63,198 nucleotides of DNA from Burkholderiales bacterium. Its GTDB lineage: Bacteria; Pseudomonadota; Gammaproteobacteria; Burkholderiales; SHXO01. The position numbers and the translations under genes were made by a program. Shown here in pieces: positions 4,841 to 49,274 of the stretch. The notes below the pieces were generated by a model, which saw only the letters and a program-made list of their open reading frames with translations, was not told the origin of the DNA and did not search any database. Location of the stretch: the NCBI GenBank assembly GCA_036554965.1, contig DATBMG010000032.1, positions 1-63,198 on the forward strand. The letters run 5' to 3'. Position 1 is the stretch's first letter; every line of letters begins with the position of its first letter.

Positions 4841-5106
4841 GTAGAAAGTCTTGACTCCGTGGGGTACACTCCGCCCTGAAGGGGAGGCACTCGCGAGGAG
4901 GTTGGTGCTTATCGCAGTGCAGGAAAAACGGACATGAGGTGGCCCGCACGAGCCTGGAGCGGGTGGCCGGGGTGGCCCGGGGTCGTTCAAGCCGGTCTGC
5001 GCTGCGCGAAAAGGGCCGTTCCTGCATCGCATCACCCACGGCCCGCGAGGTCCTGTCCAAGCAGTCCGGCTCGAAGCTCCGACCAATCAAAACCGAGGCC
5101 ACCGCT

Positions 5107-6459
5107 ATGGTCTTAGCAATCGTATTGGTTCTGCTGATCGTTGGCTCCCTCCTGTTTCACTTCCTGAGCCCGTGGTACTTCACGCCGATCGCCTCCAACT
5201 GGGGCATGATCGACACCACGGTGAACATCACGTTCTGGGTCACTGGGTTCGTCTTCGTCGCCGTCAACCTGTTCATGGTCTATTGCGTGGTGCGCTACCG
5301 CAACCGCAGGGGAGCCCGGGCGGAGTACGCGCCGGAGAACAAGAAGCTGGAGGGATGGCTCGTCGCAGTGACCACGGTCGGCGTGGTCGCCATGCTCGCG
5401 CCCGGCCTGTTCGTCTGGGCGAAATTCGTCGATCCGCCGGAAGACGCGGCGGTGGTAGAGGCTATAGGCCGGCAGTGGCATTGGTCCTATCGCTTCCCCG
5501 GGCAGGACGGCAAGCTGGGCACCGTCGATGCCCGCCACGTCAGCGACCAGAACCCGTTCGGCATGAACCCGGACGATCCCAACGGACGCGACGACATCCT
5601 GGTATCGAGCCCCGAGTTGCATCTGCCCGTGGGCAGGCCGGTCAAGGCGCTGCTGCGCTCCATCGACGTGCTGCACGACTTCGCCGTACCGCAGTTCCGC
5701 GTCAAGATGGATCTGGTGCCTGGACTGGTCACCTTCGTTTGGTTCGCGCCCACGCGCACCGGCAAATTCGACCTGCTGTGCGAGGAGCTGTGCGGCCTGG
5801 CGCACTACACCATGCGCGGCAAAGTCGTGGTGGAAGAGGAAGGCGCCTTTCAGGCGTGGTTGAGCAGCCATCCGACCTACGCGCAATCCTCGGCTCGAGT
5901 GTCCGGCGACGCCGAAGCAGGCAAGGCCCTCTACGCGGTGTGCGCCGCCTGTCATGGCGCCGAGGCGGAGGGCAACCCCGCGCTGCATGCGCCGAAGTTG
6001 AGCGGGCAGGCAGACTGGTACCTGAAACGCCAGTTGACCCATTTCAAGCAGGGGGCCCGCGGCGCGCACGAGCAGGACACTTATGGTAAACAGATGGCGC
6101 CGATGGCCGCCACGCTGGCCGACGAGGCGGCTGTCGACAACGTCGTGGCGTATGTCGCGACGCTGCCGGACAACCCCGCACCGGCGACGTTGCAGCAGTC
6201 CACCGCGAGGGGAAAGAAGCTGTACGTGAATTGTGCCGCGTGTCACGGTGCCGACGGACGCGGGATACAGGCGATGAACGCCCCGCGACTGGCGGGTATC
6301 AGCGATTGGTATCTGGTCACGCAGCTGAACAACTTCAAGCAGGGGATTCGCGGCGCGCATCCGCAGGACCTGTACGGCCCGCAGATGATGTCGATGGCCG
6401 CCAGTCTCACCGGCGAACGAGCAATCAGCGATCTGGTCGCCTACATCGGCAGCCTGTGA
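5107..6459 (+). CDS. coxM: Cytochrome c oxidase subunit II fused to a C-terminal diheme cytochrome c (alternative oxidase, CoxM-like)
   Basis: Two N-terminal TM helices, CuA site H...CEELCGLAHYTM, and two CAACHG heme-c motifs. Start at MVLAIVLVLL (ATG 5107). Confidence 0.9.
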   Translation: MVLAIVLVLLIVGSLLFHFLSPWYFTPIASNWGMIDTTVNITFWVTGFVFVAVNLFMVYCVVRYRNRRGARAEYAPENKKLEGWLVAVTTVGVVAMLAPGLFVWAKFVDPPEDAAVVEAIGRQWHWSYRFPGQDGKLGTVDARHVSDQNPFGMNPDDPNGRDDILVSSPELHLPVGRPVKALLRSIDVLHDFAVPQFRVKMDLVPGLVTFVWFAPTRTGKFDLLCEELCGLAHYTMRGKVVVEEEGAFQAWLSSHPTYAQSSARVSGDAEAGKALYAVCAACHGAEAEGNPALHAPKLSGQADWYLKRQLTHFKQGARGAHEQDTYGKQMAPMAATLADEAAVDNVVAYVATLPDNPAPATLQQSTARGKKLYVNCAACHGADGRGIQAMNAPRLAGISDWYLVTQLNNFKQGIRGAHPQDLYGPQMMSMAASLTGERAISDLVAYIGSL

Positions 6460-6534
6460 GCGGAGGTCTCGGAGGCCAGACGCGAACGGAATCGAGCAAG
6501 ACGAGCAGTTAGCGAGCGACGAGGAGATATTTAG

Positions 6535-8295
6535 ATGAGCTACGTTGCGCATGACGAATCGGCGTTCGTCCCTCCCGCCGAAGTCGAAGAGGTCGAGCTC
6601 TACCACCCGAAAACCTGGATCGGGAAGTATGTCTGGAGCCAGGACGCCAAGGTGATCGCCATCCAGTACGGGATCACCGCAATGGGGATCGGGCTGGTGG
6701 CCCTGGTGTTGTCGGGATTGATGCGCCTGCAACTGGGCTTCCCGCACACCTTCTCGTTCATCGATCCGGGCGCCTATCTCCAGTTCGTCACCATGCACGG
6801 CATGATCATGGTGATCTACCTGCTCACCGCGCTGTTCCTGGGCGGTTTCGGGAACTACCTGATTCCGCTGATGGTGGGCGCGCGCGACATGGTGTTCCCC
6901 TATGTGAACATGGTGAGCTACTGGGTCTATCTGTTCGCCGTGCTGCTGCTAGTGGCGAGCTTCTTCGTGCCCGGCGGGCCGACCGGCGCCGGCTGGACCC
7001 TGTACCCGCCCCAGGCCATCCTGGAGGGTACGCCGGGGGCGGATTGGGGAATCATCCTGATGCTCGTGTCCCTGGCCTTCTTCATCATCGGCTTCACCAT
7101 GGGCGGCCTGAACTACGTCGTGACGGTGCTGCAGGCGCGCACCCGAGGCATGACGCTGATGCGTCTGCCGTTGACGGTGTGGGGCATCTTCATGGCCACG
7201 ATCCTGGCGCTGCTGGCCTTCCCCGCGTTATTCGTGAGCGCCGTGATGATGACGCTGGACCAAGCGCTGGGCACCAGCTTCTTCATGCCGGCCCTGGTTT
7301 CGCAGGGGCAGCAGCTCGGCTATTCCGGCGGCAGCCCGGTGCTGTTCCAGCACCTGTTCTGGTTCTTCGGCCATCCCGAGGTCTACATCGTGGTGCTGCC
7401 CGCCTTCGGCATCGTCTCCGACCTGATCAGCATCCACGCCAGGAAGAACATCTTCGGCTATCGGATGATGGTGTGGGCGATCCTAGCCATCGGCGGCCTG
7501 AGCTTCATCGTCTGGGCGCACCACATGTACGTGAGCGGGATGGACCCGTACTTCGGATTCTTCTTCGCCACCACGACGTTGATCATCGCGGTGCCGACCG
7601 CCATCAAGGTCTACAACTGGGTGCTGACCCTGTGGCGCGGAAACATCCACCTCACCGTCCCGATGCTGTTCGCCATCGCCTTCGTATTCACCTTCATCAA
7701 CGGCGGATTGACCGGGTTGTTCCTGGGTAACGTGACCGTGGATCTGCCGCTATCCGACACCATGTTCGTGGTCGCCCATTTCCACATGGTGATGGCGGTG
7801 TCGCCGGTGCTGGCCGTGTTCGGGGCGATCTACCACTGGTACCCGAAGATCACCGGGCGCATGCTGGACGATACCCTGGGCAAGATCCACTTCTGGGTCA
7901 CCTTCATCGGCACCTATGCGATCTACTATCCGATGCACTATCTGGGTATCCTGGGCGTGCCGCGGCGCTACTACGCCGTCCAGAACCTGGACTTCGTCCC
8001 GCAATCGGCGCACGAGCTGAACGTCGCCATCACCATCGCCGCGCTGATCGTGGCGGCGGCACAGGTGGTGTTCCTGTACAACCTGGTGCGCAGCTACTTC
8101 GCGGGCAAGCCTGCGGGCGGCAACCCGTGGCGCGCCACCACGCTCGAATGGCAGACCCCCGACACCCCGCCGAAGCACGGTAATTTCGGCGACAAGCTGC
8201 CGGTGGTCTATCGCTGGGCTTACGACTACAGCGTACCGGGCGCCCCCGAGGACTTTATTCCGCAGAACCAGCCGCCCGTGCGCAAGCCGGCGTAG
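6535..8295 (+). CDS. coxN: Cytochrome c oxidase subunit I (alternative oxidase, CoxN-like)
   Basis: 586 aa with motifs GHPEVY, WAHHMY and VAHFH. Uninterrupted ORF. Confidence 0.92.
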   Translation: MSYVAHDESAFVPPAEVEEVELYHPKTWIGKYVWSQDAKVIAIQYGITAMGIGLVALVLSGLMRLQLGFPHTFSFIDPGAYLQFVTMHGMIMVIYLLTALFLGGFGNYLIPLMVGARDMVFPYVNMVSYWVYLFAVLLLVASFFVPGGPTGAGWTLYPPQAILEGTPGADWGIILMLVSLAFFIIGFTMGGLNYVVTVLQARTRGMTLMRLPLTVWGIFMATILALLAFPALFVSAVMMTLDQALGTSFFMPALVSQGQQLGYSGGSPVLFQHLFWFFGHPEVYIVVLPAFGIVSDLISIHARKNIFGYRMMVWAILAIGGLSFIVWAHHMYVSGMDPYFGFFFATTTLIIAVPTAIKVYNWVLTLWRGNIHLTVPMLFAIAFVFTFINGGLTGLFLGNVTVDLPLSDTMFVVAHFHMVMAVSPVLAVFGAIYHWYPKITGRMLDDTLGKIHFWVTFIGTYAIYYPMHYLGILGVPRRYYAVQNLDFVPQSAHELNVAITIAALIVAAAQVVFLYNLVRSYFAGKPAGGNPWRATTLEWQTPDTPPKHGNFGDKLPVVYRWAYDYSVPGAPEDFIPQNQPPVRKPA

Positions 8296-8351
8296 CCGCC
8301 CATGAACCAGCGTGAAGAGCCCATGAACCGGTGTAATGAGAAGGCGCGGCC

Positions 8352-9038
8352 ATGACCATCACCCTGCTGGTGCTCGCCGTGATCATGGCCGTCGTCGTCT
8401 GGTGGCTGTTGCGCCAGACGGTGAACGTCAGCCCCTGGGTCGAGCAACAATCGATTCAGGACGGTCCGGAAGGAGGCGCCGTCTCCCTGCCCCCGGTGAA
8501 GCTCGGGTTGGGTGTGTTTCTCGGGGTCGCGACATCTCTGTTCGTGCTGCTCATCAGCGCCTACTTCATGCGCATGATGGCCACGGACTGGATCGACCTG
8601 AGCGTTCCGCGCGTGCTGTGGCTGAACACCGCCGCCTTGATCCTGGCCAGCGTCGCGATGCAGTCGAGCGTGGCTGCGGCGCGACGCGCACAGGGCGACG
8701 CGGTGAGAATCGGCCTGATGGCGGCGGGCGGGTTCAGCTTCTTCTTTCTGCTCGGACAGCTGTGGGCGTGGCAGGAGCTCAATGCCGCGGGCTATTTCGC
8801 CACGTCCAATCCCGCCAATGCTTTCTTCTACCTGCTCACCGCGATGCACGGATTGCACCTGCTGGGCGGCCTGTGGGTCTGGTGCCGGACCACGGCCAAG
8901 GTGTGGCGCGGCGTCGAGGTCGCGAAGGTGCGGTTGAGCGTTGAGCTGTGCACCGTGTACTGGCACTACCTGCTCCTGGTCTGGCTGGTTCTGTTCGCGC
9001 TGCTGAGCTATCCCACGCAGTTCGCGTTGCATCGCTAG
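8352..9038 (+). CDS. coxO: Heme-copper oxidase subunit III family protein (CoxO-like)
   Basis: 228-aa polytopic protein with the subunit III-like C-terminal motif (YWHYLLLVW), located directly after coxN. Confidence 0.75.
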   Translation: MTITLLVLAVIMAVVVWWLLRQTVNVSPWVEQQSIQDGPEGGAVSLPPVKLGLGVFLGVATSLFVLLISAYFMRMMATDWIDLSVPRVLWLNTAALILASVAMQSSVAAARRAQGDAVRIGLMAAGGFSFFFLLGQLWAWQELNAAGYFATSNPANAFFYLLTAMHGLHLLGGLWVWCRTTAKVWRGVEVAKVRLSVELCTVYWHYLLLVWLVLFALLSYPTQFALHR

Positions 9039-9072
9039 GTGCCGTCGTCCACATGAAGGGGGGTCGAACAAC

Positions 9073-9789
9073 ATGACGCAACCCGCGCTGACGAGTGCGC
9101 AACAATTGCCCGCAGGCTTGCCGGGCGTCGTCGCCGACTGGTCCTCGGACCAGCGGGCATTCAAGAAGGTGCCCTGGTACAAGGCGATGATGTGGATCTT
9201 CCTGCTCAGCGACACGTTCATCTTCAGCTGCTTCCTGATCTCGTACATGACCGTGCGGGCATCCACCACGGAGCCTTGGCCGAACCCCAGCGAGGTGTTC
9301 GCCCTGACGATGTTCGGTCAGAAGATCCCCATGATCCTGATCGCCATCATGACCTTCGTCCTGATCAGCAGCAGCGGGACGATGGTCCTGGCCGTGAACT
9401 ACGGCTACCGCAAGGATCGCGTCAGGACGTTCATCTTCCTGCTGCTCACCGCGGCACTGGGCGCCACGTTCGTCGGGATGCAGGCGTTCGAGTGGACCAA
9501 GCTGATCATGGACGAGGGGGTGCGACCGTGGAGCAACCCCATGGGCGCGCCCCAGTTCGGCTCGAGCTTTTTCATGATCACCGGCTTCCACGGCACGCAC
9601 GTCTCGTTCGGCGTGCTGTTCCTGATCATCATAGCCATCAAGGTCCTGCGCGGCGATCTGGATAAGGAACGGCCGGGCTTCATGACCGGCAGGAAAGGCA
9701 ACTACGAGATCGTCGAGACCATGGGGCTGTACTGGCACTTCGTCGATCTGGTGTGGGTATTCATCTTCGCCGTCTTCTATCTCTGGTAG
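9073..9789 (+). CDS. coxP: Cytochrome c oxidase subunit III (CoxP-like)
   Basis: 238 aa with motifs ITGFHGTHV and YWHFVDLVW. Confidence 0.85.
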   Translation: MTQPALTSAQQLPAGLPGVVADWSSDQRAFKKVPWYKAMMWIFLLSDTFIFSCFLISYMTVRASTTEPWPNPSEVFALTMFGQKIPMILIAIMTFVLISSSGTMVLAVNYGYRKDRVRTFIFLLLTAALGATFVGMQAFEWTKLIMDEGVRPWSNPMGAPQFGSSFFMITGFHGTHVSFGVLFLIIIAIKVLRGDLDKERPGFMTGRKGNYEIVETMGLYWHFVDLVWVFIFAVFYLW

Positions 9790-9796
9790 GCAAACC

Positions 9797-10186
9797 ATGG
9801 CACACGCGCAAGGGCAACACGCGGCACACGCCGTAGGACAGCAAGAAAAACATGTGGAGGGCCAGCAGCATCCGCTCGGAATCTATCTCAAGATCTGGGG
9901 CTGGCTGTTCGTCCTCAGCGCCGCATCCTACGCAGTCGACTACTTCCACGTTCAGGGCTACCTGCGCTGGTTCCTGATCCTCACCTTCATGATGCTGAAG
10001 GCCGGACTGATCGTCGCGGTGTTCATGCACATGCTGTGGGAGCGGCTGGCCTTGGTCTACGCCATTCTGGTCCCGCCGCTGTTGTTGCTGGTACTGCTGG
10101 CGATCGGCGCGCTCGAAGCGGACTACACTTTCCTCACACGGGGGACGTTCTTCGGAGGGGTGTCCGAGGCGGCGCCGAAGCATTAG
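9797..10186 (+). CDS. Small cytochrome oxidase subunit IV-like membrane protein
   Basis: 129 aa, three TM helices, last gene of the coxMNOP-like operon. Confidence 0.6.
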   Translation: MAHAQGQHAAHAVGQQEKHVEGQQHPLGIYLKIWGWLFVLSAASYAVDYFHVQGYLRWFLILTFMMLKAGLIVAVFMHMLWERLALVYAILVPPLLLLVLLAIGALEADYTFLTRGTFFGGVSEAAPKH

Positions 10187-10908
10187 CGCCGGATGCCGCG
10201 CGGCGCCTTCCACCCTCTGACCAGCAGCGCCGCGTACGCGACAGCGATCAGCGCGCTCATCGCGAACCACTGCAAGGCGTAGGCGCGGTGCATGTCCGCG
10301 CCGGCGTCCAATCGCGGCCACGCGCGCAGCAGGCCGTCGGCCGCGTCGTTGCGCTGCTGCAACACGACGGACTGCAGCACCATCTTGTGGGCGGCGGCGA
10401 AACGCTCCGGATCCAGGTTCTGCCATACCGCGCCGCTCACGGTCCGTGAGGACAGCTCCAGGTAGCGCTTGCTCGGTGGCAACGCGATCCCCTCGACGCG
10501 CAGCCAGCCGGCGGGGGTGACCACCGCCGGCAGCTCCTGCCGGGTGCGCGGGGCCTTCACCCAGCCGCGGTTCACCAGCACGTGCAGGTGGCCCGGCGCC
10601 AGCCGCAAGGGTGTGATGACCTCATAGCCAACCCGGCCCTCGCGCACCCGGTTGTCGAGCAGGATGGTGAACTCGGGCCGAAACTCGCCGTGCGCTTCCA
10701 CGCGCTGATACGCGAGCGTGTCGGCCGGCACCGGCTCCGACGGCAAGTGCACCGGCGGGCGCTGCTGCGCCAGATCCATGCGCTGCTGCAGCGCCAGCTT
10801 TTCGGCCGCGCGGTCTAGCTGCCAGCTGCCGAGCCAGGCGGTGACGGCCACGCCGACGGCCGCGGCGAGCGCCGGCAACAGGCGCGTGTTCGCAAAGGAG
10901 CGGCGCAT
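10183..10908 (-). CDS. SURF1 family cytochrome oxidase assembly protein
   Basis: 241 aa with a TM helix at each end and the WQLDR motif. Its stop overlaps the convergent coxQ-like stop by 4 nt. Confidence 0.85.
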   Translation of the reverse strand: MRRSFANTRLLPALAAAVGVAVTAWLGSWQLDRAAEKLALQQRMDLAQQRPPVHLPSEPVPADTLAYQRVEAHGEFRPEFTILLDNRVREGRVGYEVITPLRLAPGHLHVLVNRGWVKAPRTRQELPAVVTPAGWLRVEGIALPPSKRYLELSSRTVSGAVWQNLDPERFAAAHKMVLQSVVLQQRNDAADGLLRAWPRLDAGADMHRAYALQWFAMSALIAVAYAALLVRGWKAPRGIRR

Positions 10909-11249: not shown

Positions 11250-12104
11250 TTACAACCAGTACACCAGGACGAACAACAGCAGCCAGACCACGTCCACGAA
11301 GTGCCAGTACCAGGAAACCGCCTCGAAGCCGAAGTGATGCTCGGGTTTGAAGTGGCCGCGCAGCGCGCGGAAGAAGATCACGATCAGCATGATCGTGCCG
11401 AGCGTGACGTGCAGGCCATGGAAGCCGGTGAGCAGGAAGAAGGTCGCGCCGTAGGCCCCGGTGCCGAGCGTCAGGCCGAGCTCGCTGTAGGCGTGCGCGT
11501 ACTCATAGGCTTGCAGCGCGAGGAACAGGCAGCCCAGCACGACGGTCAGGAACAAGCCGACCTTGAGCTGCCTGCGGTCGCCCAGCTTGAGCCCCCAGTG
11601 CGCCCAGGTCACGGTGGCGCCCGAGAACAGCAGGATCAGCGTGTTGATCGCCGGAATGCCCAAGGCCCCCATCGGGGTGAAGGGCTCGGTCAGGCCGGGA
11701 CCCGAGACCGGCCACCCGGCCTCGAAGTTCTGCCACAGCAGGGCTCCGGTGTCGCCTTCGCCGAGCCAGGGGACCGACAGCACGCGCATGTAGAACAGCG
11801 CGCCGAAGAAGGCGGCGAAGAACATCACTTCGGAGAAGATGAACCAGCCCATCGCCCAGCGGAAGGAGAGGTCCACCTGGCTGTTGAACTTGCCCGCCTC
11901 GCTCTCGCGGATGACCGTGCCGAACCAGCCGGACAGCATGTAGATCAGCAGGCCCGCGCCACCCGCCAGCGGCCACCAGCCGGAGACCGAGTCGTTCAAC
12001 AGCAGCACGGTGCCGAAGGCGATCAAGAACAGCGCGCTGGAACCGACCACCGGCCAATGCGACGGTGCCGGCACGTAGTAGCGGCTGGAATCGGTGCTCG
12101 CCAT
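11250..12104 (-). CDS. ctaE: Cytochrome c oxidase subunit III (aa3-type)
   Basis: 284 aa with motifs TGFHGLHV and SWYWHFVDVVW. Confidence 0.92.
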   Translation of the reverse strand: MASTDSSRYYVPAPSHWPVVGSSALFLIAFGTVLLLNDSVSGWWPLAGGAGLLIYMLSGWFGTVIRESEAGKFNSQVDLSFRWAMGWFIFSEVMFFAAFFGALFYMRVLSVPWLGEGDTGALLWQNFEAGWPVSGPGLTEPFTPMGALGIPAINTLILLFSGATVTWAHWGLKLGDRRQLKVGLFLTVVLGCLFLALQAYEYAHAYSELGLTLGTGAYGATFFLLTGFHGLHVTLGTIMLIVIFFRALRGHFKPEHHFGFEAVSWYWHFVDVVWLLLFVLVYWL

Positions 12105-12158: not shown

Positions 12159-12434
12159 TCACACGATCAGGTTCACCAGCGTCACCAGGATGATCACAAA
12201 CAGGGCCGCGGCGATGACGCCCGCCACGATCACGTGGACCGGCTTCAGGCTCGCCAGGTCCCGATCACCCGCGCTTCTCCTGCGGATGCCGATGAACGCG
12301 CCGAGCACCGCCGATATCGCCCGCAGCGGCGAGGCCCTGCGGGTGCGCTGTTCCCGCGTCGACTGCGGGCTTTTCGGCATCGACCCGGCCGTGGTCACTT
12401 CTCCCACGCGCCTGTGCGAATCGAACGGCGCCAT
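12159..12434 (-). CDS. DUF2970 family small membrane protein
   Basis: C-terminal single TM helix (VIVAGVIAAALFVIILV), in the conserved position between ctaG and ctaE. Start uncertain; an internal MPKSPQS is possible. Confidence 0.6.
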   Translation of the reverse strand: MAPFDSHRRVGEVTTAGSMPKSPQSTREQRTRRASPLRAISAVLGAFIGIRRRSAGDRDLASLKPVHVIVAGVIAAALFVIILVTLVNLIV

Positions 12435-12438: not shown

Positions 12439-12993
12439 TCAGCTCGCTCCCGACCCTGCGCCCTGCGCCAGCTGAAAGAAGGTATAGGACAGCGTGATCA
12501 CGGTCACGTCGCGCGGCAGCTGCGGATCCACCACGAACTGCACCGGCATCTGCCGGGTCTCGTTGCCCTGCAACTCCTGCCGCGCGAAGCAGAAGCACTC
12601 GATCTTCTTGAGGTATTGCGCCGCCGCCTGCGGACCGTAGCTCGGGATGGCTTGCCCCAGCACCGGCGCGTCGCTGGTGTTGCGCACCTCGTAGAGCACC
12701 TGGATCACCTCCCCCGGGTGTGCACGCACGCTCTTCTGCAGCGGCCGGAACTCCCAGGGCAGTCCGCGCGTGTTGGCGTCGAACTCGATGGTGAGCAGAC
12801 GGCTCTCGTCGATCTGCGTGTTGCGCACCGCGTCGGGTCCGTCCAGGTTGTAGATGCCGGTGGTCTCGCAGATCTTCTCGTAGATCGGCACCAGTGCGAA
12901 ACCGAACGCGAACATTCCCGCCGCAACGACGACCAGCTTGCGCAGCAGTTGCCGGTTGGCGTGCGCCACAGTCATCGACCGGGTCGGGTTCAC
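12439..12993 (-). CDS. ctaG: Cytochrome c oxidase assembly protein CtaG/Cox11 (CuB insertion)
   Basis: 184 aa with an N-terminal TM helix and the CFCF copper motif (KKIECFCFARQ). GTG start overlaps the upstream stop (GTGA). Confidence 0.9.
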   Translation of the reverse strand: MNPTRSMTVAHANRQLLRKLVVVAAGMFAFGFALVPIYEKICETTGIYNLDGPDAVRNTQIDESRLLTIEFDANTRGLPWEFRPLQKSVRAHPGEVIQVLYEVRNTSDAPVLGQAIPSYGPQAAAQYLKKIECFCFARQELQGNETRQMPVQFVVDPQLPRDVTVITLSYTFFQLAQGAGSGAS

Positions 12994-13124
12994 TGGTACA
13001 GGCGCCGCAGCAGGAAGCCGAGGAGGAAAGCCGCCGCGATCGACGCCAGGATCAACGCGGTGCGTAGGTTTCGCGCGCGGACCCTGTCGCCGTCGCTCCG
13101 CATCGTGCCCGCCATCTGTCTCAT
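12990..13124 (-). CDS. Small single-TM protein between ctaD and ctaG (possible cytochrome oxidase small assembly protein)
   Basis: 44 codons (MRQMAGTMRSDGDRVRARNLRTALILASIAAAFLLGFLLRRLYQ*), translationally coupled to ctaG. Called from position and TM character only. Confidence 0.45.
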   Translation of the reverse strand: MRQMAGTMRSDGDRVRARNLRTALILASIAAAFLLGFLLRRLYQ

Positions 13125-13138: not shown

Positions 13139-14722
13139 TCAACGGATGAGCGGAGGCGTCTCGAAGCTGTGGTAGGGAGGCGGCGATGGCAGCGCGGTCC
13201 ACTCCAGGCTGTCGGCGCCTTCCCACGGCCTCTGCGCGGCCTTCTTGCCGCTGCGGATGGTCTTCAGCACGATGTACAGGAACAGCAGCTGCGACACTCC
13301 GAAGCCGAAGGCGCCGATGCTCGAGATCGCGTTGAACTCGACGAACTGCAGCGCGTAGTCGGGAATGCGCCGCGGCATGCCAGCGAGCCCGGAGAAGTGC
13401 TGCACGAAAAAGGTCACGTTGAAGAACACGAACGACAGCCAGAAGTGCAGCTTGCCGAGCGTCTCGTCGTACATCCTGCCGGTCCACTTGGGCAGCCAGA
13501 AGTAGATGCCGCCGAAGGCCGAGAACAGGGCGCCTGCCACCATCACGTAGTGGAAGTGCGCGACCACGTAATAGGTGTCGTGCAGCTGCACGTCCAGCGG
13601 GGCGATCGACAGCACCAGGCCGGTGAAGCCGCCCAGGGTGAACAGGAACAGGAAGCCGATGGCGAACAGCATCGGCGTCTCGAAGCTGAGCGAGCCCTTC
13701 CACATGGTCGCCACCCAGTTGAACACCTTCACTCCGGTCGGGACCGCGATCAGCATGGTGGCGAACATGAAATAGAGCTGCGCCTGCACCGGCATGCCCA
13801 CCGTGTACATGTGGTGCGCCCACACCAGGAACGACAGGATGGCGATAGAGGCGGTGGCGTACACCATCGAAGCGTAGCCGAACAACGGCTTGCGCGAGAA
13901 CGCCGGCACGATCTGCGAGATCACGCCGAAGGCCGGGATGGCGATGATGTAGACCTCCGGGTGGCCGAAGAACCAGAAGATGTGCTGGAACAGCACCGGG
14001 TCGCCGCCACCCGCGGGGTTGAAGAAGTGCGTGCCCAGATGACGGTCGGTGAGCAGCATGGTGACGGCGCCGGCGAGCACCGGCATCACCGCGATCAGCA
14101 GGTAGGCGGTGATCAGCCAGGTCCAGCAGAACATCGGCATCCGCATCAGCGTCATGCCGGGGGCGCGCATGTTCAGCAGCGTGGTGATGATGTTGATCTA
14201 GCCCATGATCGAGGACACGCCCAGAATGTGCACCGCGAAGATGGTCAGGTCCATGCTCAGGCCCTGCTGAACGGTGAGCGGGGGGTAGAGCGTCCAGCCC
14301 ACGCCGGCGCCGCCGCCCGGGGCGAACTGGGCCAGGATCAGCAGCAGGGCGGCCGGCGGCAGCAGCCAGAAGCTCCAGTTGTTGAGCCGCGGAAAGGCCA
14401 TGTCCGGCGCGCCGATCTGCATCGGGATCAGCCAGTTGGCGAACCCCACGAAGGCCGGCATGATGGCCCCGAAGACCATGACCAGCCCGTGATAGGTGGT
14501 CATGCTGTTGAAGAACTCGGGCTCGGTGACCTGCAAGCCGGGCTCGAACAGCTCGGCGCGGATCACCAGGGCCATGACCCCCCCGAGGATGAACATCGAG
14601 AACGAGAACCACAAGTACATCGTGCCGATGTCTTTGTGGTTGGTGGTGGTGAGCCAGCGCATCAGCCCGGAAGGGGCGTGATCGTGCCCGTGGTCGTGCG
14701 CGTAGCCGTGTGCCGCTTCCAT
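13139..14722 (-). pseudogene. ctaD: Cytochrome c oxidase subunit I (aa3-type CtaD) interrupted by an in-frame TAG at 14198-14200
   Basis: ORFs 14198-14722 and 13139-14170 are in the same frame. Together they read ...[28 protein letters not shown]..., so the stop sits at the conserved Ala of the GAINFITT motif. The rest is intact (GHPEVY, WAHHMY, VAHFHY). Confidence 0.85.
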
Positions 14723-14783: not shown

Positions 14784-15839
14784 CTACCTCGACTGCGCCA
14801 CCATGTACGCGACGGCCGCCCTCACCTGCTGGTCCGACAGTCCGGGATTGCCGCCCTTGGGCGGCATCATGCGGATCCCCTTGAGCGCGTTCTGCATCAG
14901 CGTCGCTTCGCCGCGCGCGATGCGCGGCGCCCAGGCTGCTTTGTCGCCGGTCCTTGGCGCGCCGGCCAGTCCGGCCGCGTGGCACGCCTGACAGATCTGC
15001 TCATATGTGCCCTTGCCGTCGGCCGGCTCCGCGGCGGCCGCTGCGTCCCCGACAACTGCAGCCTGCATGGACTTCTGCTCCGCCACCCACTGGTCGAACT
15101 CGCGCTGGGTCACGGCGCGCACCACGATGGGCATGAAGGCGTGCTCCTTGCCGCACAGCTCGGCGCACTGGCCGCGGTAGACGCCGGGCTCCTCGGCACG
15201 GAACCAAGCGTCGCGCACGAAGCCGGGAATCGCATCCTGCTTCACCGCCAGCGCGGGTACGTACCAGGCGTGCAGGACGTCGGCCGCGGTGGTCAGGATG
15301 CGCACCTTCTTGCGCACCGGCACCACCAGCTCGCGGTCCACCTCGAGCAGATAGTGCTCGCCCTTGGGCTCACGGTTGTCGATCTGGGCGCGCGGGGTGG
15401 CGAGGTTGCTGTAGAAGCTCACCCCTTCCTGCAGATAGTCGTAATGCCACTTCCACTGGTAGCCGGTGGCCTTGATGGTTAGGTCGGGGGCCGAGGCGTC
15501 GCGCTGATCGAGCAGCGTCTTGGTGGCGGGCCAGGCCATGCCGAGCAGGATCAAGAAGGGGATCACCGTCCAGATCATCTCGACGGTGGTGTTCTCGTGG
15601 AACAGCGCCGCCTGGTGCCCGACCGACTTGCGGTGCCTCCAGATGGCGTAGAACATCGCGCCGAACACCGCGACGAAGATCACCAGACAGATCAGCACGA
15701 CGGCGTTGTGCAGATCGTAGATGGCGTGACCGACCGCGGTCTTCTGGTCCTGCAGCCCGAGCCTCCACTCCCCCGAGGCGAGGCCCGCCCACAGCGACAG
15801 CAGCGCGCCCGCCAGAGCGTGGGCGGCTTTTCTAGTCAT
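14784..15839 (-). CDS. ctaC: Cytochrome c oxidase subunit II with a C-terminal monoheme cytochrome c
   Basis: 351 aa with a signal peptide, two TM helices, CuA site CAELCGKEHAFM and one CQACH motif. Start at MTRKAAHAL (ATG 15837-15839). Confidence 0.92.
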   Translation of the reverse strand: MTRKAAHALAGALLSLWAGLASGEWRLGLQDQKTAVGHAIYDLHNAVVLICLVIFVAVFGAMFYAIWRHRKSVGHQAALFHENTTVEMIWTVIPFLILLGMAWPATKTLLDQRDASAPDLTIKATGYQWKWHYDYLQEGVSFYSNLATPRAQIDNREPKGEHYLLEVDRELVVPVRKKVRILTTAADVLHAWYVPALAVKQDAIPGFVRDAWFRAEEPGVYRGQCAELCGKEHAFMPIVVRAVTQREFDQWVAEQKSMQAAVVGDAAAAAEPADGKGTYEQICQACHAAGLAGAPRTGDKAAWAPRIARGEATLMQNALKGIRMMPPKGGNPGLSDQQVRAAVAYMVAQSR

Positions 15840-15985
15840 GGTTTGGGGATTGTTCCTGCGCGCAACCGGCAGATGGCTCTGCGGCTCCGCGACATCGGCA
15901 AGTTGCATTGCTTCCCAGGCCCCGATCGCTCCCGGGATCGAGCGGGTCCTCCTCGTGGGCCGGCAATTTAGCATAGCGGCGAGGA

Positions 15986-24076: not shown

Positions 24077-25330
24077 TTGTCGCTCCGAACACGCGATCGC
24101 CCGCGCTTGTCGTCGATGCAAGTTGGCATGGCACCAGGCGCCTGCCTCCGCGGACCGCGGACGGCTCGCCCGCACCTGGCCGCCGCGCTGGCCGCCGCCC
24201 TGCTCGCCGCGCCCCTGGCTGCGCCGGCCGCCGGTCCGGCCGACGAGTTGAAGGAGCTGCGCGGGCGCATCGATCGCCTGCAGAAGGAGCTGGGCGAAAC
24301 CCAGGCCTCGCGCATCCGCGCGGTGGACGCGCTGCGCGAATCGGAGCAAGCGATCAGCGAAGCCAACCGCCGTCTGTTCGAGCTGGCGCGCGAGCAAGCG
24401 CGTGCGCGCGAATCGCTGGAGCAACTCAACGCGGAGAAGGACCGGCTCACTACGGGCGTCGAGGAGCAGCAGCGCGACCTGAGCGAAGCCCTGTACCGGC
24501 AGTACCTGCAGGGGCGGCCGGCGCCGCTCGCCGTGCTGCTGGAGCGTCAGGACCCGAATCAGCTGTCGCGGCGCATGCACTATCTGACTTACATCTACCG
24601 CAGCCGTGCCGAGCAGATCGAGCGGCTGCGCGAGGACATCGCGCGGCTCGAGGCGCTGTCTCAGGAGACCGAGAGCAGGAATCAGGCGCTGGAGGAGCTC
24701 AAGGCCGAGCAGCAGGCGCAGCGCCGGCGTCTGCAGCAGGAGAAGGCCGAGCGGCGGGAGGTGCTGGCGAAGATGTCGCAGTCGATTCAGCTGCAGCGCC
24801 GGGAGATCGGCAACCTGCGCCGCGACCAGGAGCAACTGCGCAAGCTGGTGGAGCGCCTGGAGCGGGAGGCGGCAGAGCGTCGCGCCGCGCAGAAGAAAAA
24901 GGATACGCGCGAGGATGCGGTGGGCGACAACACGGCCTTCGGCCGGCTCAAGGGGCGCTTGCGCATGCCGGTGCGCGGCGAGCTCGCCCATCGTTTCGGC
25001 TCCCCGCGCCAGGAGACGGGCCTGACCTGGAACGGCCTGTTCATCGCCGCTCGGACCGGCAGCGAGGTCAGCGCGATCGCACCCGGGCGCGTGGTCTTCG
25101 CCGACTGGCTGCGCGGGTTCGGCAACCTGTTGATTCTGGACCACGGCGAAGGTTACATGAGCCTCTATGGCAATAATGAAACATTGTTGCGGCGCGTCGG
25201 AGACGAGGTGGATGGCGGCGCGACGGTGGCGGCGGTGGGCGCGAGCGGCGGCAACCCGGAAACGGGTTTATACTTTGAAATCAGGTTTCGTGGCCGTCCG
25301 GTCGACCCCTTGAGCTGGGTCAAACGATAA
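24077..25330 (+). CDS. envC: Murein hydrolase activator EnvC-like protein (coiled coil plus degenerate LytM/M23 domain)
   Basis: Signal peptide, a long coiled-coil region and a C-terminal M23 fold (GNLLILDHGEGYMSLYG). Start may be the internal MQVGM. Confidence 0.8.
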   Translation: MSLRTRDRPRLSSMQVGMAPGACLRGPRTARPHLAAALAAALLAAPLAAPAAGPADELKELRGRIDRLQKELGETQASRIRAVDALRESEQAISEANRRLFELAREQARARESLEQLNAEKDRLTTGVEEQQRDLSEALYRQYLQGRPAPLAVLLERQDPNQLSRRMHYLTYIYRSRAEQIERLREDIARLEALSQETESRNQALEELKAEQQAQRRRLQQEKAERREVLAKMSQSIQLQRREIGNLRRDQEQLRKLVERLEREAAERRAAQKKKDTREDAVGDNTAFGRLKGRLRMPVRGELAHRFGSPRQETGLTWNGLFIAARTGSEVSAIAPGRVVFADWLRGFGNLLILDHGEGYMSLYGNNETLLRRVGDEVDGGATVAAVGASGGNPETGLYFEIRFRGRPVDPLSWVKR

Positions 25331-25429
25331 CAAATCCGCAGTTCGGGCCGTAAATAGCATGAAGATTGCCTGGCGTGCACCAACCCGCAGCAGCAGGACG
25401 GCAGAACACACCACTCAAAAGGTAACGCT

Positions 25430-26845
25430 ATGCGCACAAGAGTAAAGCAGGCCGCGCTCATCGCCCTCGGGGCGGTGCTCGGCGTGCTCATCAGCCTGAA
25501 CTTCTCGGCCGTCGCCCAGAAGAACCCCGGTCCGCTGCCGGTCGAGGACCTGCGTGCCTTCACCGAGGTGTTCGGACGCATCAAGAACGACTACGTCGAG
25601 CCGGTGGACGACAAGAAGCTGATCACCGAAGCCATCAACGGCATGCTTACCGGCCTCGATCCGCACTCCGCGTACCTGGATGCGGAAGCGTTTCGCGAGC
25701 TGCAGGTCGGCACCCAGGGCGAGTTCGGTGGCCTGGGCATCGAAGTCGGCATGGAAGACGGCTTCGTCAAGGTGATCTCGCCGATCGAGGACACGCCGGC
25801 CTACCGCGCCGGCCTTAAGCCCGGCGACCTGATCATCAAGCTCGACGAGACCAACGTGAAGGGCATGACGCTCAACGATGCGGTCAAGCGCATGCGCGGC
25901 AAACCCAACACGGATATCACGCTGACCGTGATCCGCAAGGGCGACACCAAGCCGCGCGTGATCACGCTCACCCGGGCGATCATCCAGATCCAGAGCGTGA
26001 AGTCGAAGGTGCTCGAGCCCGGCTACGCTTACGTGCGCGTCACTCAGTTCCAGGAGCACACGCCCGAGAAGATGGCCGCGGCGGTGGACAAGATGTTCAA
26101 GGACAACCAGGGTCCGATGAAGGGCCTGGTGCTCGACCTACGCAACGACCCCGGCGGGCTGCTCAACGCGGCGGTAGCGATCTCGGCGGCTTTCCTGCCG
26201 CAGAACGCGCTGGTGGTGTACACCGACGGCCGCACCGAAGATTCGAAGATGCGCCTGTACGCGAGCGGCGAGTACTACCTGCGCGGTAGCCGCGACGACT
26301 TCATGAAGAAGCTGCCCCCGGCGGTGAAGAGCGTGCCGATGGTGGTGCTGGTCAACGGCGGCTCGGCCTCGGCGTCCGAGATCGTGGCCGGCGCGCTGCA
26401 GGACCACAAGCGCGCCATCATCATGGGCACGCAGACCTTCGGCAAGGGCTCGGTGCAGACCATCCTGCCGCTGGGCAACAACACCGCGATCAAGCTCACC
26501 ACGGCGCGCTACTACACCCCCAACGGCCGGTCGATTCAGGCGAAGGGCATCACTCCCGACATCGTGGTCGAGGAAGCCACCATCGCCGAATCGGATGCGG
26601 CGCTGCGCATGCGCGAAGCCGACCTCGAGCGCCACCTGTCCAATCCGACCGAGCCGGACGAGGACAAGCCGGCCGCGCCCGCTGCGAAGCCGGAGCCGGG
26701 TGCTCAGCAACAACAACAGCAGCAGCAGCAGCAACAACAGGCGGCGCCCAAGGGCGAGCCGGCCGAGATCGGCTCCAAGGGCGACTACCAACTCAACCAG
26801 GCGCTGAATCTGCTGAAGGGCCTGCAGATCATCAGCCGCAAGTAG
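25430..26845 (+). CDS. ctpA: Carboxy-terminal processing protease (S41 family) with a C-terminal low-complexity tail
   Basis: 471 aa with a PDZ domain, S41 motifs (LDLRNDPGG, GGSASASEIVAGALQD, GKGSVQT) and a Q12 tract near the C-terminus. Confidence 0.9.
   Translation: MRTRVKQAALIALGAVLGVLISLNFSAVAQKNPGPLPVEDLRAFTEVFGRIKNDYVEPVDDKKLITEAINGMLTGLDPHSAYLDAEAFRELQVGTQGEFGGLGIEVGMEDGFVKVISPIEDTPAYRAGLKPGDLIIKLDETNVKGMTLNDAVKRMRGKPNTDITLTVIRKGDTKPRVITLTRAIIQIQSVKSKVLEPGYAYVRVTQFQEHTPEKMAAAVDKMFKDNQGPMKGLVLDLRNDPGGLLNAAVAISAAFLPQNALVVYTDGRTEDSKMRLYASGEYYLRGSRDDFMKKLPPAVKSVPMVVLVNGGSASASEIVAGALQDHKRAIIMGTQTFGKGSVQTILPLGNNTAIKLTTARYYTPNGRSIQAKGITPDIVVEEATIAESDAALRMREADLERHLSNPTEPDEDKPAAPAAKPEPGAQQQQQQQQQQQQAAPKGEPAEIGSKGDYQLNQALNLLKGLQIISRK
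26705..26740 (+). repeat. CAG/CAA trinucleotide tract encoding Q12 inside ctpA
   Basis: cagcaacaacaacagcagcagcagcagcaacaacag, in frame with ctpA. Confidence 0.95.
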
Positions 26846-26868
26846 CCCCGGGCAACCGCTCCGTGACA

Positions 26869-26899
26869 CCGGCAGGCCTCGTGCCTGCCGGTTTCTTTT
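26869..26899 (+). terminator. Rho-independent terminator after ctpA
   Basis: Stem ccggcagg / cctgccgg with a 7-nt loop, then tttctttt. Two more copies of ggcgcctgccgg flanking a T8 run follow, to 26933. Confidence 0.75.
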
Positions 26900-26986
26900 G
26901 GGGCGCCTGCCGGTTTTTTTTCGGCGCCTGCCGGGCTTTCCTTTCAGCACCGGCCGCGGGGGTAGAATGCCCGCGGGAGCACCCAC

Positions 26987-27766
26987 ATGAACGCACCCCG
27001 CCCCGAGATCGACCTCGACGACGAGCAGCTGCTGCGCTACAGCCGCCATATTCTTCTGCCCGAGATCGGCATCGACGGGCAGCAGCGGCTGGCGGCCGCG
27101 CACGCGCTTGTTGTCGGCGCCGGCGGGCTGGGCTCGCCGGTGTCGCTGTACCTCGCCGCCAGCGGCGTGGGGCGCCTCACCGTGTGCGACCACGACAAGG
27201 TCGATTTGACCAATCTGCAGCGCCAGATCGCACACGACACCGGAACCATCGGCCTCCCCAAAGTCGAGTCCGCGCGCCGCCGGCTGCAGCTCGTCAACCC
27301 GCAGACCCGCGTCGACGCGATCGAGGAACGGGTGGCCGGTGAGCGCCTGAAGCAGCTGGTGAGCGACGCCGACGTGGTGATCGACGCCACCGACAACTTC
27401 GCCACGCGCCATGCCATCAACCGCGCCTGCGTCGAGTTGCGCAAGCCGCTGGTGTCGGGCGCGGGCATCCGCTTCGACGGGCAGATCGCGGTGTTCGACC
27501 TGCGCCGCGCGGACAGCCCCTGCTACCACTGCCTGTTTCCCGAGCAGGGCGAGGTCGAGGAAATGCGCTGCGCGGTGATGGGCGTGTTCGCACCGCTGGT
27601 GGGTATCGTCGGATCGGTGCAGGCCGCCGAAGCACTCAAGCTGATCATGGGCATCGGCGAGACCCTGAGCGGCCGGCTGCTCCTGCTCGACGCGCTGGCG
27701 ATGCAGTGGCGTAGCATCCGGCTCACCCGCGATGCGTCCTGCGCGGTGTGCTCCGCGCGGCCCTGA
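26987..27766 (+). CDS. moeB: ThiF/MoeB family adenylyltransferase (molybdopterin-synthase adenylyltransferase-like)
   Basis: 259 aa with RYSRHILLPEIG, VVGAGGLGS, and CxxC pairs (CYHC, CAVC). Confidence 0.85.
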   Translation: MNAPRPEIDLDDEQLLRYSRHILLPEIGIDGQQRLAAAHALVVGAGGLGSPVSLYLAASGVGRLTVCDHDKVDLTNLQRQIAHDTGTIGLPKVESARRRLQLVNPQTRVDAIEERVAGERLKQLVSDADVVIDATDNFATRHAINRACVELRKPLVSGAGIRFDGQIAVFDLRRADSPCYHCLFPEQGEVEEMRCAVMGVFAPLVGIVGSVQAAEALKLIMGIGETLSGRLLLLDALAMQWRSIRLTRDASCAVCSARP

Positions 27767-27820
27767 CGGCCTCCCGACGCCGGGCGCGCCGACGCTGTTG
27801 CGATCGCGGGCGCTGCGCGC

Positions 27821-28402
27821 TCAGGCCGGGACCAGCTGCTTCCACTGCGCCGGCCAGGCCTCGAGCGGGTCGCGCTTGAAGCCGCTCTTGGCGAACTGGT
27901 GCCAGCGGCCGATCACGAAGCACAGCATGAGATTGGCATGCGCCGCCGCGTCCACCGCTTCCGGGACCTCGCCCTGGGTGGCGGCAAAGCGCAAGCATTG
28001 CTTGAGAGTGGCCTCGAGCCGGTCGTGCAGCTGGTTGATGCGCGCCTGCAGGCGCTCGTTCTCGTTCACCAGCGCGTCGCCGATCAGCACCCGCGTCATA
28101 CCGCGGTTCTTGCGCGCGAATCCCAGCAGCATAGACAGCACCGCTTCGAGCTGCGCCAGGCCGCCCTGCTGCTCGGCGGTGATCTTGTTCACCAGCCCGA
28201 AGATGGTTTCCTCGATGAAGCCGATCAGGCCCTCGAACATCTGCGCCTTGCTGGCGAAGTGGCGGTACAGCGCCGCCTCGGAGACGTCGAGCTTGGCGGC
28301 GAGCGCCGCCGTAGTGATGCGCTCGGCGCTGGGCGTCTCGAGCATCTCCGCCAGCGTCTGCAGGATCTGCAGCTTGCGCTCGCCGGGCTTGGTCGCGGGC
28401 AT
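27821..28402 (-). CDS. slmA: TetR-family nucleoid occlusion factor SlmA
   Basis: 193 aa with KPGERKLQILQTLAEMLE and TTAALAAKLDVSEAALYRHFASKAQMFEGLIGFIEE. Start at MPATKPG. Confidence 0.85.
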   Translation of the reverse strand: MPATKPGERKLQILQTLAEMLETPSAERITTAALAAKLDVSEAALYRHFASKAQMFEGLIGFIEETIFGLVNKITAEQQGGLAQLEAVLSMLLGFARKNRGMTRVLIGDALVNENERLQARINQLHDRLEATLKQCLRFAATQGEVPEAVDAAAHANLMLCFVIGRWHQFAKSGFKRDPLEAWPAQWKQLVPA

Positions 28403-28407
28403 GGCCT

Positions 28408-29075
28408 CTAGCGCAGGTGGCGCAGCATGCGGGGCAGCTGCGCAAGATTGGAGACGGTCACGTCCACGTGTGCGCGCAAGCGGCCGCTCGGCTGCACCCA
28501 TACCGTTCTCATACCCAGCCGCTTGGCCGCCATCAGGTTCGCCAGGTCGTCCTCCACCATGACGCAGCGCTGCGGATGCAGGCGGTGCTTGCGCAGCAGG
28601 CGCAGGAAGCCCGCCGGGTCCGGCTTGGGCCGGAAGCCGGTGTGCTCGATGGTGAACACGTCGTCGAACAGATCCGCCACCCTGAGAAGCTCCAACACCG
28701 CCCGGGAATAATGCACCGGAGCGTTCGAAAACACCAGCTTGCGCCCGGGCAGCCGCGTCAGCACCGAGCGCAGCAGCGGATTGCGCAGCACCGCGCGCTC
28801 CAGCTCGGCGAACCGATGCGTCTCCCGCAGGAAGTGCCGCGGGTCGACCCCGTGGTGGCGCATCAGTCCCAGCAGGGTGGCCCCATAGCGCCGCCAGTAG
28901 TCTACCCGCAATGCATTCGCGGCTTGCGCGTCGAGCCCCAGGTAGCGCTCCAGGTAGGCGGTCATGGAGCGGTTCAGGTGCGGGAAGATGTGCGGGTTGG
29001 CGTCGTGCAGCGTGTTATCCAGATCGAATATCCACACCGTGCCCACACCGTGGTGCGGCCGGGGGCGCCGGCTCA

Positions 29076-34781: not shown

Positions 34782-35042
34782 ATGGATACTCCCAAGCTTG
34801 CCCTTGCGGCCGCGGCTGCGGCGCTGTTCATCGCCGGGTGTACCACCCAGGGCGGCGGCAGCACGATGCAGACGGCGGACGCCGGAACGGTGAAGGTGAA
34901 GTGCTATGGCGCCAACGCCTGCAAGGGCCAGGCCGAGTGCAAGACGGCGATGAACGAGTGCAAGGGCCACAACGCCTGCAAGGGCAAGGGCTTCTTGAGC
35001 ATGACCGAGAAGGACTGCGTGGATCGCCTCGGACGCGCTTGA
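34782..35042 (+). CDS. Cys-rich secreted RiPP precursor of the bufferin type (BufA-like), with a lipobox
   Basis: GGAGAAG SD, then ATG. The 86-aa product starts [20 protein letters not shown] (IAGC lipobox). The core [40 protein letters not shown] has six Cys. It lies immediately upstream of the MNIO/DUF2063 pair. Confidence 0.8.
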
Positions 35043-35050
35043 GGCGTGGC

Positions 35051-35090
35051 GGGAAGCCGGTCGTGCCCGCCGGCTTCCCGCTCTTTTCTC
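35051..35090 (+). terminator. Intra-operon hairpin plus T-tract between the precursor and the MNIO gene (candidate attenuator/partial terminator)
   Basis: Perfect 10-bp stem gggaagccgg / ccggcttccc (35051-35060 and 35070-35079), 9-nt loop, then gctcttttctc. Confidence 0.6.
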
Positions 35091-35092
35091 GT

Positions 35093-35977
35093 ATGCGCCG
35101 AGACGCACTCTTGCCGGACCGCACGGCCCCGCCGCCGGACCGAGGATTGACCTTGCCGAGCGCGGGCTTCGGCCTGGGGCTGCGCACCGCACACTACGAA
35201 GCGATCGCGGCTGAACGGCCCGCGGTCGACTGGTTCGAGATCCTGACCGAGAACTACCTGGTGCCCGGCGGGCGGCCCCTGCAATGGCTGGACCGGATCG
35301 GCGCCGACTATCCGCTCGCCATGCACGGCGTGTCGCTGTCGGTCGGCAGCACCGATCCCCTCGACCTCGACTATCTGCGCGCGGTGAAGGCGTTGGCGCA
35401 GCGCGTCGCCCCGCTGTGGATCTCCGATCATCTGTGCTGGACCGGCGTGGCCGGCAAGAATCTGCACGACCTGCTGCCGTTGCCCTACACCGAACCGGCG
35501 CTGCGCCACGTGGTGGCGCGCGTTCAGGCGGCGCAGGAGTTGCTGGGGCAGCGCATCCTGCTGGAGAACGTCTCCAGTTACGTGGAGTTCAAGGATGCCG
35601 AGATGACCGAGTGGGAGTTCCTGGCGCAGGTGGCGCGGCAGGCCGACTGCCTGATCCTGCTGGACGTCAACAACATATATGTCAGCGCCTGCAACCATGG
35701 CTTCGCGGCCGACAACTACCTAACCGGCATCCCGGCCGAGCGCGTGCAGCAGATTCATCTGGCGGGACACAGTCATTGCGGCGAGTACATCATCGACACC
35801 CATGACGCGCCCGTGGCCGACCCGGTGTGGGCGCTGTACGAGCGCGCGGTCGGGCGCCTGGGCCCGGTGGCCACCATGATCGAGCGCGACGATCGCATTC
35901 CTCCGCTGGCGGAGTTGCTGGCCGAGCTCGAGCGGGCGCGCGCGCTCGGCGCCCGTGTGCAGGCCAGGCAGGCATGA
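35093..35977 (+). CDS. MNIO family (DUF692) multinuclear non-heme iron oxidative enzyme, BufB-like
   Basis: Motifs [52 protein letters not shown] and IHLAGHS. Start is ATG 35093, or in-frame TTG 35153, which has a better SD (GAGGA). Confidence 0.88.
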
Positions 35978-36753
35978 GCCTCCGCGCTTTGCAGGATGCC
36001 TTCCAAGCGTACGTGTTGCACGGGGCGGCACCGATCCGCGAGCGCGTCGCGCCGGGACCGCTGCACAACGCCGAGCGGCGCCTGCGGATCTACTACGACG
36101 CCTATCGGCTGCGGCTGATCGAGGCGCTCGCCAGCGATTACGAGACGCTGCGCGCCGCGCTGGGCGAGGAGGCGTTCCGGACTGCGGCCTTGGCGTACGT
36201 GCAAGCGAATATGTCGCAGTGGCGCAACGTGCGCTGGTACGGTGCGCGGCTACCGGACTTCCTGCGCGACACCGCGCCGTGGAGCGACCGCGTCTGGCTC
36301 AGCGACATCGCGCACTTCGAGTGGACGCTGACGCTGGCTTTCGATGCCGCGGACGCGTCCCGCCTGACCTTCGCCGAGCTCGCCACGCTGCCGCCCGAGG
36401 CGTGGGCGGCGCTCGCCTTCCGGCTGCACCCGTCCGTGCATCTGCTGCGGCTGTCGAGCAACGCCCCGGCGATGCGCAAGGCGGTGGACGCGGGCGCCGC
36501 ACTTCCCGCCATCGAGACCTACGATTCGCCCGTCGAGTGGCTCGTCTGGCGCAACAGCCTTACCGTGTCTTTTCGCTCGCTGCCGGTCGCGGAGCGCTAC
36601 GCCCTCGTCGCGGCGCAGCGCGCCAAGAGCTTCCCGGCGATCTGCGAAGGCATCTGCGCGTTCGTCCCTGCCGACGAAGCGCCTGCGCTCGCCGCCGGCT
36701 GGCTGCGCACCTGGGTGGACGACGGGTTGATCAGCGCAGCGCTGCTGCCCTAG
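35974..36753 (+). CDS. DUF2063 family protein (MNIO partner/precursor-recognition subunit, BufC-like)
   Basis: 259 aa with [10 protein letters not shown] and [21 protein letters not shown] overlap with the MNIO gene. Confidence 0.85.
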
Positions 36754-45705: not shown

Positions 45706-45714
45706 CGTCCCCTC

Positions 45715-46572: not shown

Positions 46573-46700
46573 CCGGTCTTTCCTCCGACCCGCTCCCTCA
46601 TCCAGCGGTCCAGGCGTGCGAGCAGCACGTCGCGTTCAACTCGCGCAAGAGGTACGCCGTGCTCCGCTGACCCATGATCTGTCGTCCACCACACGGCATT

Positions 46701-46731
46701 TTATACACTTTTCAGCACGCCGCTGGTCAAG
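46701..46731 (-). promoter_or_regulatory. Candidate sigma-70 promoter for the minus-strand sugar-nucleotide operon
   Basis: Minus strand reads TTGACC, then 19 nt, then TATAAA, inside the AT-richer 430-nt divergent intergenic region. The spacer is longer than ideal. Confidence 0.3.
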
Positions 46732-49272: not shown

Positions 49273-49274
49273 CC

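Follow-up and report, generated by a model that had tools for sequence, protein, structure and literature searches.

A private in-frame amber codon in the aa3 oxidase gene ctaD of an uncultured Burkholderiales bacterium: a knockout of very recent origin or a base-calling error

Introduction

In Bordetella, redundant terminal oxidases have been lost through premature stops, which affect cco and cyo2 in B. pertussis and ccoP, cydB3, cyoB1 and cyoC1 in strain 18323 (PMC11257404). The cta operon of Bordetella also holds a gene for a small membrane protein and a DUF2970 gene (PMC11257404).

The present analysis concerns a stretch of 63,198 nucleotides (contig DATBMG010000032.1 of assembly GCA_036554965.1, hereafter the window) from an uncultured member of the Burkholderiales, in which ctaD, the gene for subunit I of the canonical aa3-type cytochrome c oxidase, is interrupted by an in-frame amber codon. 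The likeness to Bordetella lies in membership of the Burkholderiales broadly, in the presence of several oxidase loci and in a similar cta operon layout that includes the DUF2970 gene; moreover, the lesion itself is of the same kind, a premature stop caused by a point mutation in an essential subunit while other oxidases are intact (PMC11257404). However, the Bordetella stops are fixed, common to many isolates and verified in finished genomes, whereas the window stop is a singleton from one assembly of an uncultured organism. Bordetella also retains its aa3 locus (cta1), whereas the window stop strikes subunit I of the canonical aa3 enzyme.

Two further classes of in-frame stop invite comparison. 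Pseudogenes that arise from consensus errors in metagenome-assembled genomes resemble the window case in that one base departs from every sibling assembly while the gene is otherwise perfectly conserved; however, the usual accompanying signs, namely indels and other broken genes, are absent from the window, and private differences there are very few. The likeness to amber recoding systems (pyrrolysine, suppressor tRNAs, and TAG-reassigned phage and bacterial codes) is superficial and consists in an in-frame TAG within a conserved gene, whereas TAG is a frequent and genuine terminator in the window and interrupts a reading frame in just one gene, of just one assembly.

At the level of the protein, the repaired CtaD of the window aligns end to end with the solved structures of Paracoccus denitrificans (1AR1/1QLE), Rhodobacter sphaeroides (1M56) and plant mitochondrial COX1 (7JRO), with E values from 1e-182 to 5e-186; it is the window copy that is interrupted. 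The comparisons given below indicate that the ctaD stop reflects either inactivation of the gene in the very recent past or an error in base calling, and not a new reading of the genetic code.

Results

The ctaD gene and its amber codon

The interrupted gene and its parts are as follows.

13139-14722, minus strand: ctaD, encoding subunit I of a cytochrome c oxidase of the A family (aa3 type); 527 codons, broken by a stop at codon 175; identified by translation and by Pfam COX1
14198-14200, minus strand: in-frame amber codon TAG, codon 175; the plus strand reads 'cta'
14198-14722, minus strand: predicted 174-aa N-terminal product if the TAG terminates, keeping only the first haem a His (TTYHG) and lacking the CuB and haem a3 ligands
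13139-14197, minus strand: untranslated remainder of ctaD, codons 176-527, with the HPEVY, WAHHMY and VAHFHYV motifs

Translation of the minus strand gave a ctaD frame of 527 codons with a TGA terminator and a single internal stop at codon 175. The TAG recorded at 14198-14200 in the preliminary description was thus reproduced, and the local translation given there agrees. The Pfam COX1 profile was matched collinearly in one frame, with profile positions 1-134 before the stop and 137-435 after it, and GC3 was 0.97 on either side; both sides of the stop are therefore true coding sequence of one gene. The frame carries the ligand motifs TTYHG, FGHPEVY, WAHHMY and VAHFHYV, with TTYHG alone lying upstream of the stop, and the protein is 82-100% identical to other CtaD. 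The gene thus has the collinear profile and the metal-ligand motifs of an A-family subunit I (CtaD/COX1, PF00115) and lacks only an uninterrupted reading frame. The interruption aside, it is an ordinary member of this family.

An active subunit I might in principle be formed from two pieces, the 174-aa N-terminal part and a separately initiated C-terminal part of 343 aa. The first possible restart is an ATG at 14170, 27 nt past the stop. However, the 25 nt that precede this ATG, CAACATCATCACCACGCTGCTGAAC, hold no Shine-Dalgarno-like sequence, unlike the sequence preceding the true start, GGGAGAAG, and a restart at 14170 would remove nine residues of a transmembrane helix. Moreover, the relatives all carry a single 527-aa gene and none has a split one, and neither product is on record: the exact 174-aa truncated CtaD was absent from about 15 billion proteins, and an exact protein look-up returned no record of the 343-aa restart product. 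A split gene with restart was accordingly rejected, on the missing Shine-Dalgarno sequence and the lack of any split in relatives, and is the most improbable of the readings weighed here.

The ancestral codon at position 175

When the CtaD protein was searched with the stop masked, a 527-aa protein (P0001) was matched at 100% identity, together with many further proteins at 82-91%. Serine occupied the stop column in 127 of the 127 close CtaD homologues retrieved (GSINIITT; context SSIMG-S-INII). The preliminary description had placed the stop at the Ala of a GAINFITT motif. The motif column is correct, in the form G-[AS]-IN-[FI]-ITT, but the residue is Ser in this lineage; the same column holds Ala in Paracoccus and Ser in plant COX1 and in all of these close betaproteobacterial homologues.

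The DNA of codon 175 gave the same picture. Across 86 related loci the codon specified Ser in 78 (TCG 64, TCA 8, TCC 6), Ala in five and Gly in three, and was never a stop. Relatives closer to the window were found by exact-protein look-ups of the neighbouring genes, which returned many JGI metagenome contigs and one Logan contig at 99.2-99.99% identity; two of the related contigs are collinear with the window over 44 kb and 54 kb. The site is covered by seven distinct contigs (L082/L091 and L084/L092, each pair one and the same contig, were counted once), each from a different sample and 99.2-99.98% identical to the window, and in every one of them the codon was TCG. TCG was also the codon of an outgroup at about 90% nucleotide identity, represented by the NCBI metagenome-assembled genome GCA_973518975.1 and two other contigs. 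Since TCG is found both in the population contigs and in the outgroup, TAG is a derived allele that the window alone carries. The base that differs lies at window position 14199; it is T on the plus strand and A on the coding strand, and G/C in all relatives, where it gives TCG Ser.

A single transversion, C>A as read on the coding strand and G>T on the plus, takes TCG to TAG, so that one change or one miscalled base suffices. The earlier argument that two or more base changes are required to turn a GCN Ala codon into TAG, and that a miscall is for that reason not the simplest explanation, falls with the ancestral TCG. With Ser at position 175 the window CtaD is exactly protein P0121, which is present on 10 metagenome contigs, and differs from it at no other amino acid.

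No TAG-bearing relative was found among the seven near-identical contigs, the three outgroup contigs and the 86 related loci. Exact-pattern scans of the metagenome_contigs collection, one for either allele and one specific for TAG, returned no match and are uninformative, as the known TCG contigs were also not returned; a scan of genome_contigs yielded relatives at most 86% identical.

Past selection on ctaD

Against the outgroup, ctaD gave a dN/dS of 0.063 upstream of the stop (codons 1-174) and of 0.088 downstream of it (codons 176-527), a pattern that indicates strong constraint on both halves of the gene until very recently. No secondary decay was seen: ctaD has no further stops, frameshifts or raised dN, and its operon partners are all intact. 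The locus therefore shows two features of a recent nonsense pseudogene, an in-frame stop where orthologues are intact and an origin by one substitution, and lacks secondary decay. Its absence would be expected both of a very recent lesion and of an artefact.

Differences between the window and its population

No indel separated the window from the near-identical contigs in the 56.4 kb compared, the G7 run in ctaD included. Private single-nucleotide variants (SNVs) were scored over the 48.3 kb covered by at least two near-identical contigs, and five were found, three synonymous, one missense and one nonsense.

10456: GAG, population GAA; synonymous, in SURF1; transition
14199: TAG, population TCG; nonsense, ctaD codon 175; transversion
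14225: ATT, population ATC; synonymous, ctaD codon 166 (minus strand), 26 nt from the stop; transition
35714: AAC, population GAC; D208N in an MbnB-like gene; transition
40503: AAT, population AAC; synonymous; transition

The absence of indels and the small number of private SNVs imply a low general error rate in the window. Low assembly quality or genome decay in general was considered as a source of the stop and ruled out, with one broken gene in 49 and zero indels in 56 kb. That one gene is ctaD, which alone of the 49 window genes checked has an internal stop. A GC3 scan for further stops of a read-through-like kind was dominated by antisense shadow frames and by adjacent genes in the same frame, and ctaD alone held.

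These data bear directly on the possibility that the T at 14199 is an artefact of sequencing, assembly or consensus calling, in which case the TCG codon would be intact and the aa3 oxidase functional. The wrong letter could stem from a miscall, from low coverage at that position, or from the assembler or polisher following a minor or damaged-read path. A single base suffices, TCG is carried by all independent contigs from that population, the protein equals the population allele P0121 except for the stop, and neither ctaD nor its operon shows other decay in a gene with a dN/dS of 0.06-0.09. Moreover, the nonsense change is the sole transversion among the five private SNVs, and G>T changes are a classic class of oxidative-damage artefact. 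However, the window is very clean, with zero indels in 56 kb and five SNVs in 48 kb, which are mostly natural-looking synonymous transitions, and at so low an error rate there is a small chance that an error would both occur and create a stop. Taken together, an artefact is a serious possibility that falls somewhat short of an even chance.

The outgroup at about 90% identity has GTT at codon 166, with the same third-position T as the window allele, and the 14225 variant therefore looks like natural polymorphism and not error; this implies a real variant haplotype across the site and speaks against an artefact. Two of five SNVs within 26 nt would be expected with P~0.01 under independence, which suggests a distinct and genuine local haplotype at 14199/14225. 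The other four private SNVs look like natural polymorphism, all being transitions and three of them synonymous third-position changes.

The sequence context was also inspected at window positions 10456, 14199, 14225, 40503 and 4835. A CCWGG motif contains, or comes within 2 nt of, positions 10456 and 14225 (P~0.013 for two of five, the motifs having been chosen post hoc), 14199 abuts GATC (likewise a post hoc observation), and 14225 and 40503 show, again post hoc, an identical C>T change in the common heptamer CAWCCTG. This context could hint, with the same post hoc proviso, at motif-linked miscalls or at a mutational hotspot. A GATC adjoining 14199 and CCWGG near two other SNVs would fit long-read motif miscalls and so count for an artefact; the link to these methylation motifs is suggestive, post hoc, and does not clearly include the nonsense site.

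A further singleton was seen in one of the related contigs. Contig L081 (Ga0376039_0051988) has, at its position 1860 (window 13665), a private ctaD transversion TTC>TGC that puts Cys in place of a Phe (F353C) which the other homologues examined all conserve. Singletons of doubtful standing in ctaD are thus not unique to the window, and their occurrence in the dataset is a further point in favour of an artefact at 14199.

TAG as a stop codon in the window

A different account holds that the TAG is decoded, whether by a suppressor tRNA for amber, by insertion of pyrrolysine, under a reassigned code or by read-through that depends on context, and that full-length CtaD is made. The gene shows no other defect, and a gene for a suppressor tRNA might be present elsewhere in the genome. 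However, TAG terminates 14 of the 49 window genes (TGA 31, TAA 4), among them ctaC, directly upstream of ctaD, and four from the neighbouring oxidase set, and occurs in frame in no other gene of the 49 checked; the 63-kb window itself holds no tRNA gene. The TAG is absent from the seven near-identical contigs, the three outgroup contigs and the 86 loci, so that there is nothing conserved, and the sequence downstream of the stop is the same as in the TCG relatives, which indicates that no dedicated read-through signal has evolved. Neither the rare use of TAG as a terminator nor the conservation of TAG in relatives, both of which mark amber recoding, was found, and recoding was rejected on stop-codon usage and the absence of conservation. 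Full decoding of the codon is accordingly considered very improbable.

Of the explanations listed in the preliminary description, two thus survive, inactivation of the gene in the very recent past and an error of assembly or consensus, and a suppressed or recoded site is left without support. It had also been proposed there that a TAG common to relatives, combined with signs of full-length protein, would point to recoding; the comparison with the ctaD of relatives was made, none carries TAG, and the near-identical contigs have TCG.

A related reading, in which the amber codon is genuine but some full-length CtaD is nevertheless made by partial read-through or suppression, is likewise given only a slim chance. 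A milder variant would have a ctaD-null strain persist in nature on the neighbouring coxMNOP-type oxidase alone.

The cta operon and a second oxidase

The genes around ctaD are listed below.

14784-15908, minus strand: ctaC, subunit II, with a cytochrome c domain at its C terminus; intact, TAG terminator (Pfam)
12990-13115, minus strand: 41-aa ORF between ctaD and ctaG; conserved, called in all related contigs, no Pfam match
12439-12975, minus strand: ctaG/Cox11 copper chaperone; intact (Pfam)
12159-12434, minus strand: intact gene of the cta operon for a DUF2970 membrane protein
11250-12104, minus strand: ctaE, subunit III; intact, exact protein on 16 contigs (Pfam)
10183-10908, minus strand: SURF1 assembly factor; intact (Pfam), with the window-private synonymous SNV at 10456
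4939-10186, plus strand: second A-family oxidase gene set (coxMNOP-like), five genes, all intact
4939-6459, plus strand: COX2 fused to a di-haem cytochrome c, second oxidase
6535-8295, plus strand: 586-aa COX1, second oxidase; profile positions 2-436 of 436, E 5.8e-137, ligand motifs present
8352-9038, plus strand: weak COX3-like gene, second oxidase
9073-9789, plus strand: COX3 gene, second oxidase
9797-10186, plus strand: COX4_pro gene, second oxidase

Full-length Pfam matches bear out the earlier statement that the flanking ctaC, ctaG, ctaE and SURF1 genes are intact. The 41-aa ORF probably corresponds to the small membrane protein encoded in the cta operons of betaproteobacteria, named 'ctaF1' in Bordetella (PMC11257404).

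The second complete oxidase set noted before is confirmed at 4939-10186 and has no internal stops. It lies 3-8 kb from ctaD and has what a backup oxidase requires, a complete and intact gene set with a catalytic subunit I. Its adjacent full-length COX1 paralogue is a plausible backup for the aa3 enzyme.

Other features of the window

Three further regions drew attention. A cluster on the plus strand at 34782-36753 comprises an 86-aa Cys-rich secreted peptide (34782-35042), an enzyme of the MbnB/TglH/ChrH family (DUF692; 35093-35977) and an HvfC_N protein (35974-36753). We take this cluster to be a bufferin-like RiPP locus, Pfam giving the families only. The window-private missense SNV at 35714 (D208N) falls in the MbnB-like gene.

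An ORF resembling S41 (C-terminal processing) peptidases at 25430-26845 on the plus strand has, near its 3' end, 12 consecutive Gln within a linker rich in Pro, Ala and Glu. The related contigs leave window positions 24723-28431, the region of this Gln run, uncovered.

From about 44000 to 56500 lies a biosynthesis cluster of the polysaccharide or O-antigen type, with a GC content of 0.58-0.64 as against about 0.67-0.70 in the rest of the window. It contains epimerases, glycosyltransferases, an asparagine synthase-like gene and a gene for an 803-aa multi-pass membrane protein without a Pfam match. Related contig L104 diverges here, at 99.6% identity and with indels, which suggests a strain-variable island.

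Discussion

The reading that we slightly favour over a consensus error, with a little better than even confidence, is that the TAG is a plain nonsense substitution in the DNA of the cell and marks a very recent loss-of-function allele of ctaD. What counts for a real allele is the clean window, the natural-looking SNVs, the linked variant at 14225, the ordinary use of TAG as a terminator, the redundancy of oxidases and the precedent in Bordetella. Against it stand the absence of the allele elsewhere in the population (none of seven contigs) and the presence of the Ser175 protein on 10 contigs. A null ctaD should, moreover, be selected against, given the strong constraint on the gene. The comparisons establish the single-step origin of the TAG, its restriction to the window, the ordinary role of TAG as a terminator, the integrity of the neighbouring genes and purifying selection in the past, whereas it is inferred that the base is real rather than miscalled and that the second oxidase compensates for its effect.

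If the substitution is real, a C>A transversion on the coding strand would have turned TCG Ser175 into an amber codon. Translation would then end at codon 175 and leave a 174-aa fragment without helices V-XII and without the CuB and haem a3 ligands. Since the fragment lacks the motifs that hold these ligands (HPEVY, HH and HFH), the canonical aa3 oxidase could not be assembled and the genome copy would be null. Aerobic respiration would then run through the intact second A-family oxidase, and possibly through oxidases elsewhere in the genome; the proximity of that complete set may explain how a ctaD-null allele could be tolerated. As no amino-acid change, frameshift or operon decay has accumulated, the lesion would have to be extremely recent.

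The TAG amounts to an unremarkable nonsense mutation or a miscalled base, and no support was found for a new mechanism. Either way, ctaD should be annotated as carrying an internal stop and not cited as evidence of recoding, and the finding has little import beyond annotation. If the base is an error, the case is a reminder that single-base consensus errors in metagenomes mimic pseudogenes. If the base is real, the window would record a natural aa3 knockout in a population in which every other sampled genome keeps aa3, and would thus offer a small natural experiment on the redundancy of terminal oxidases.
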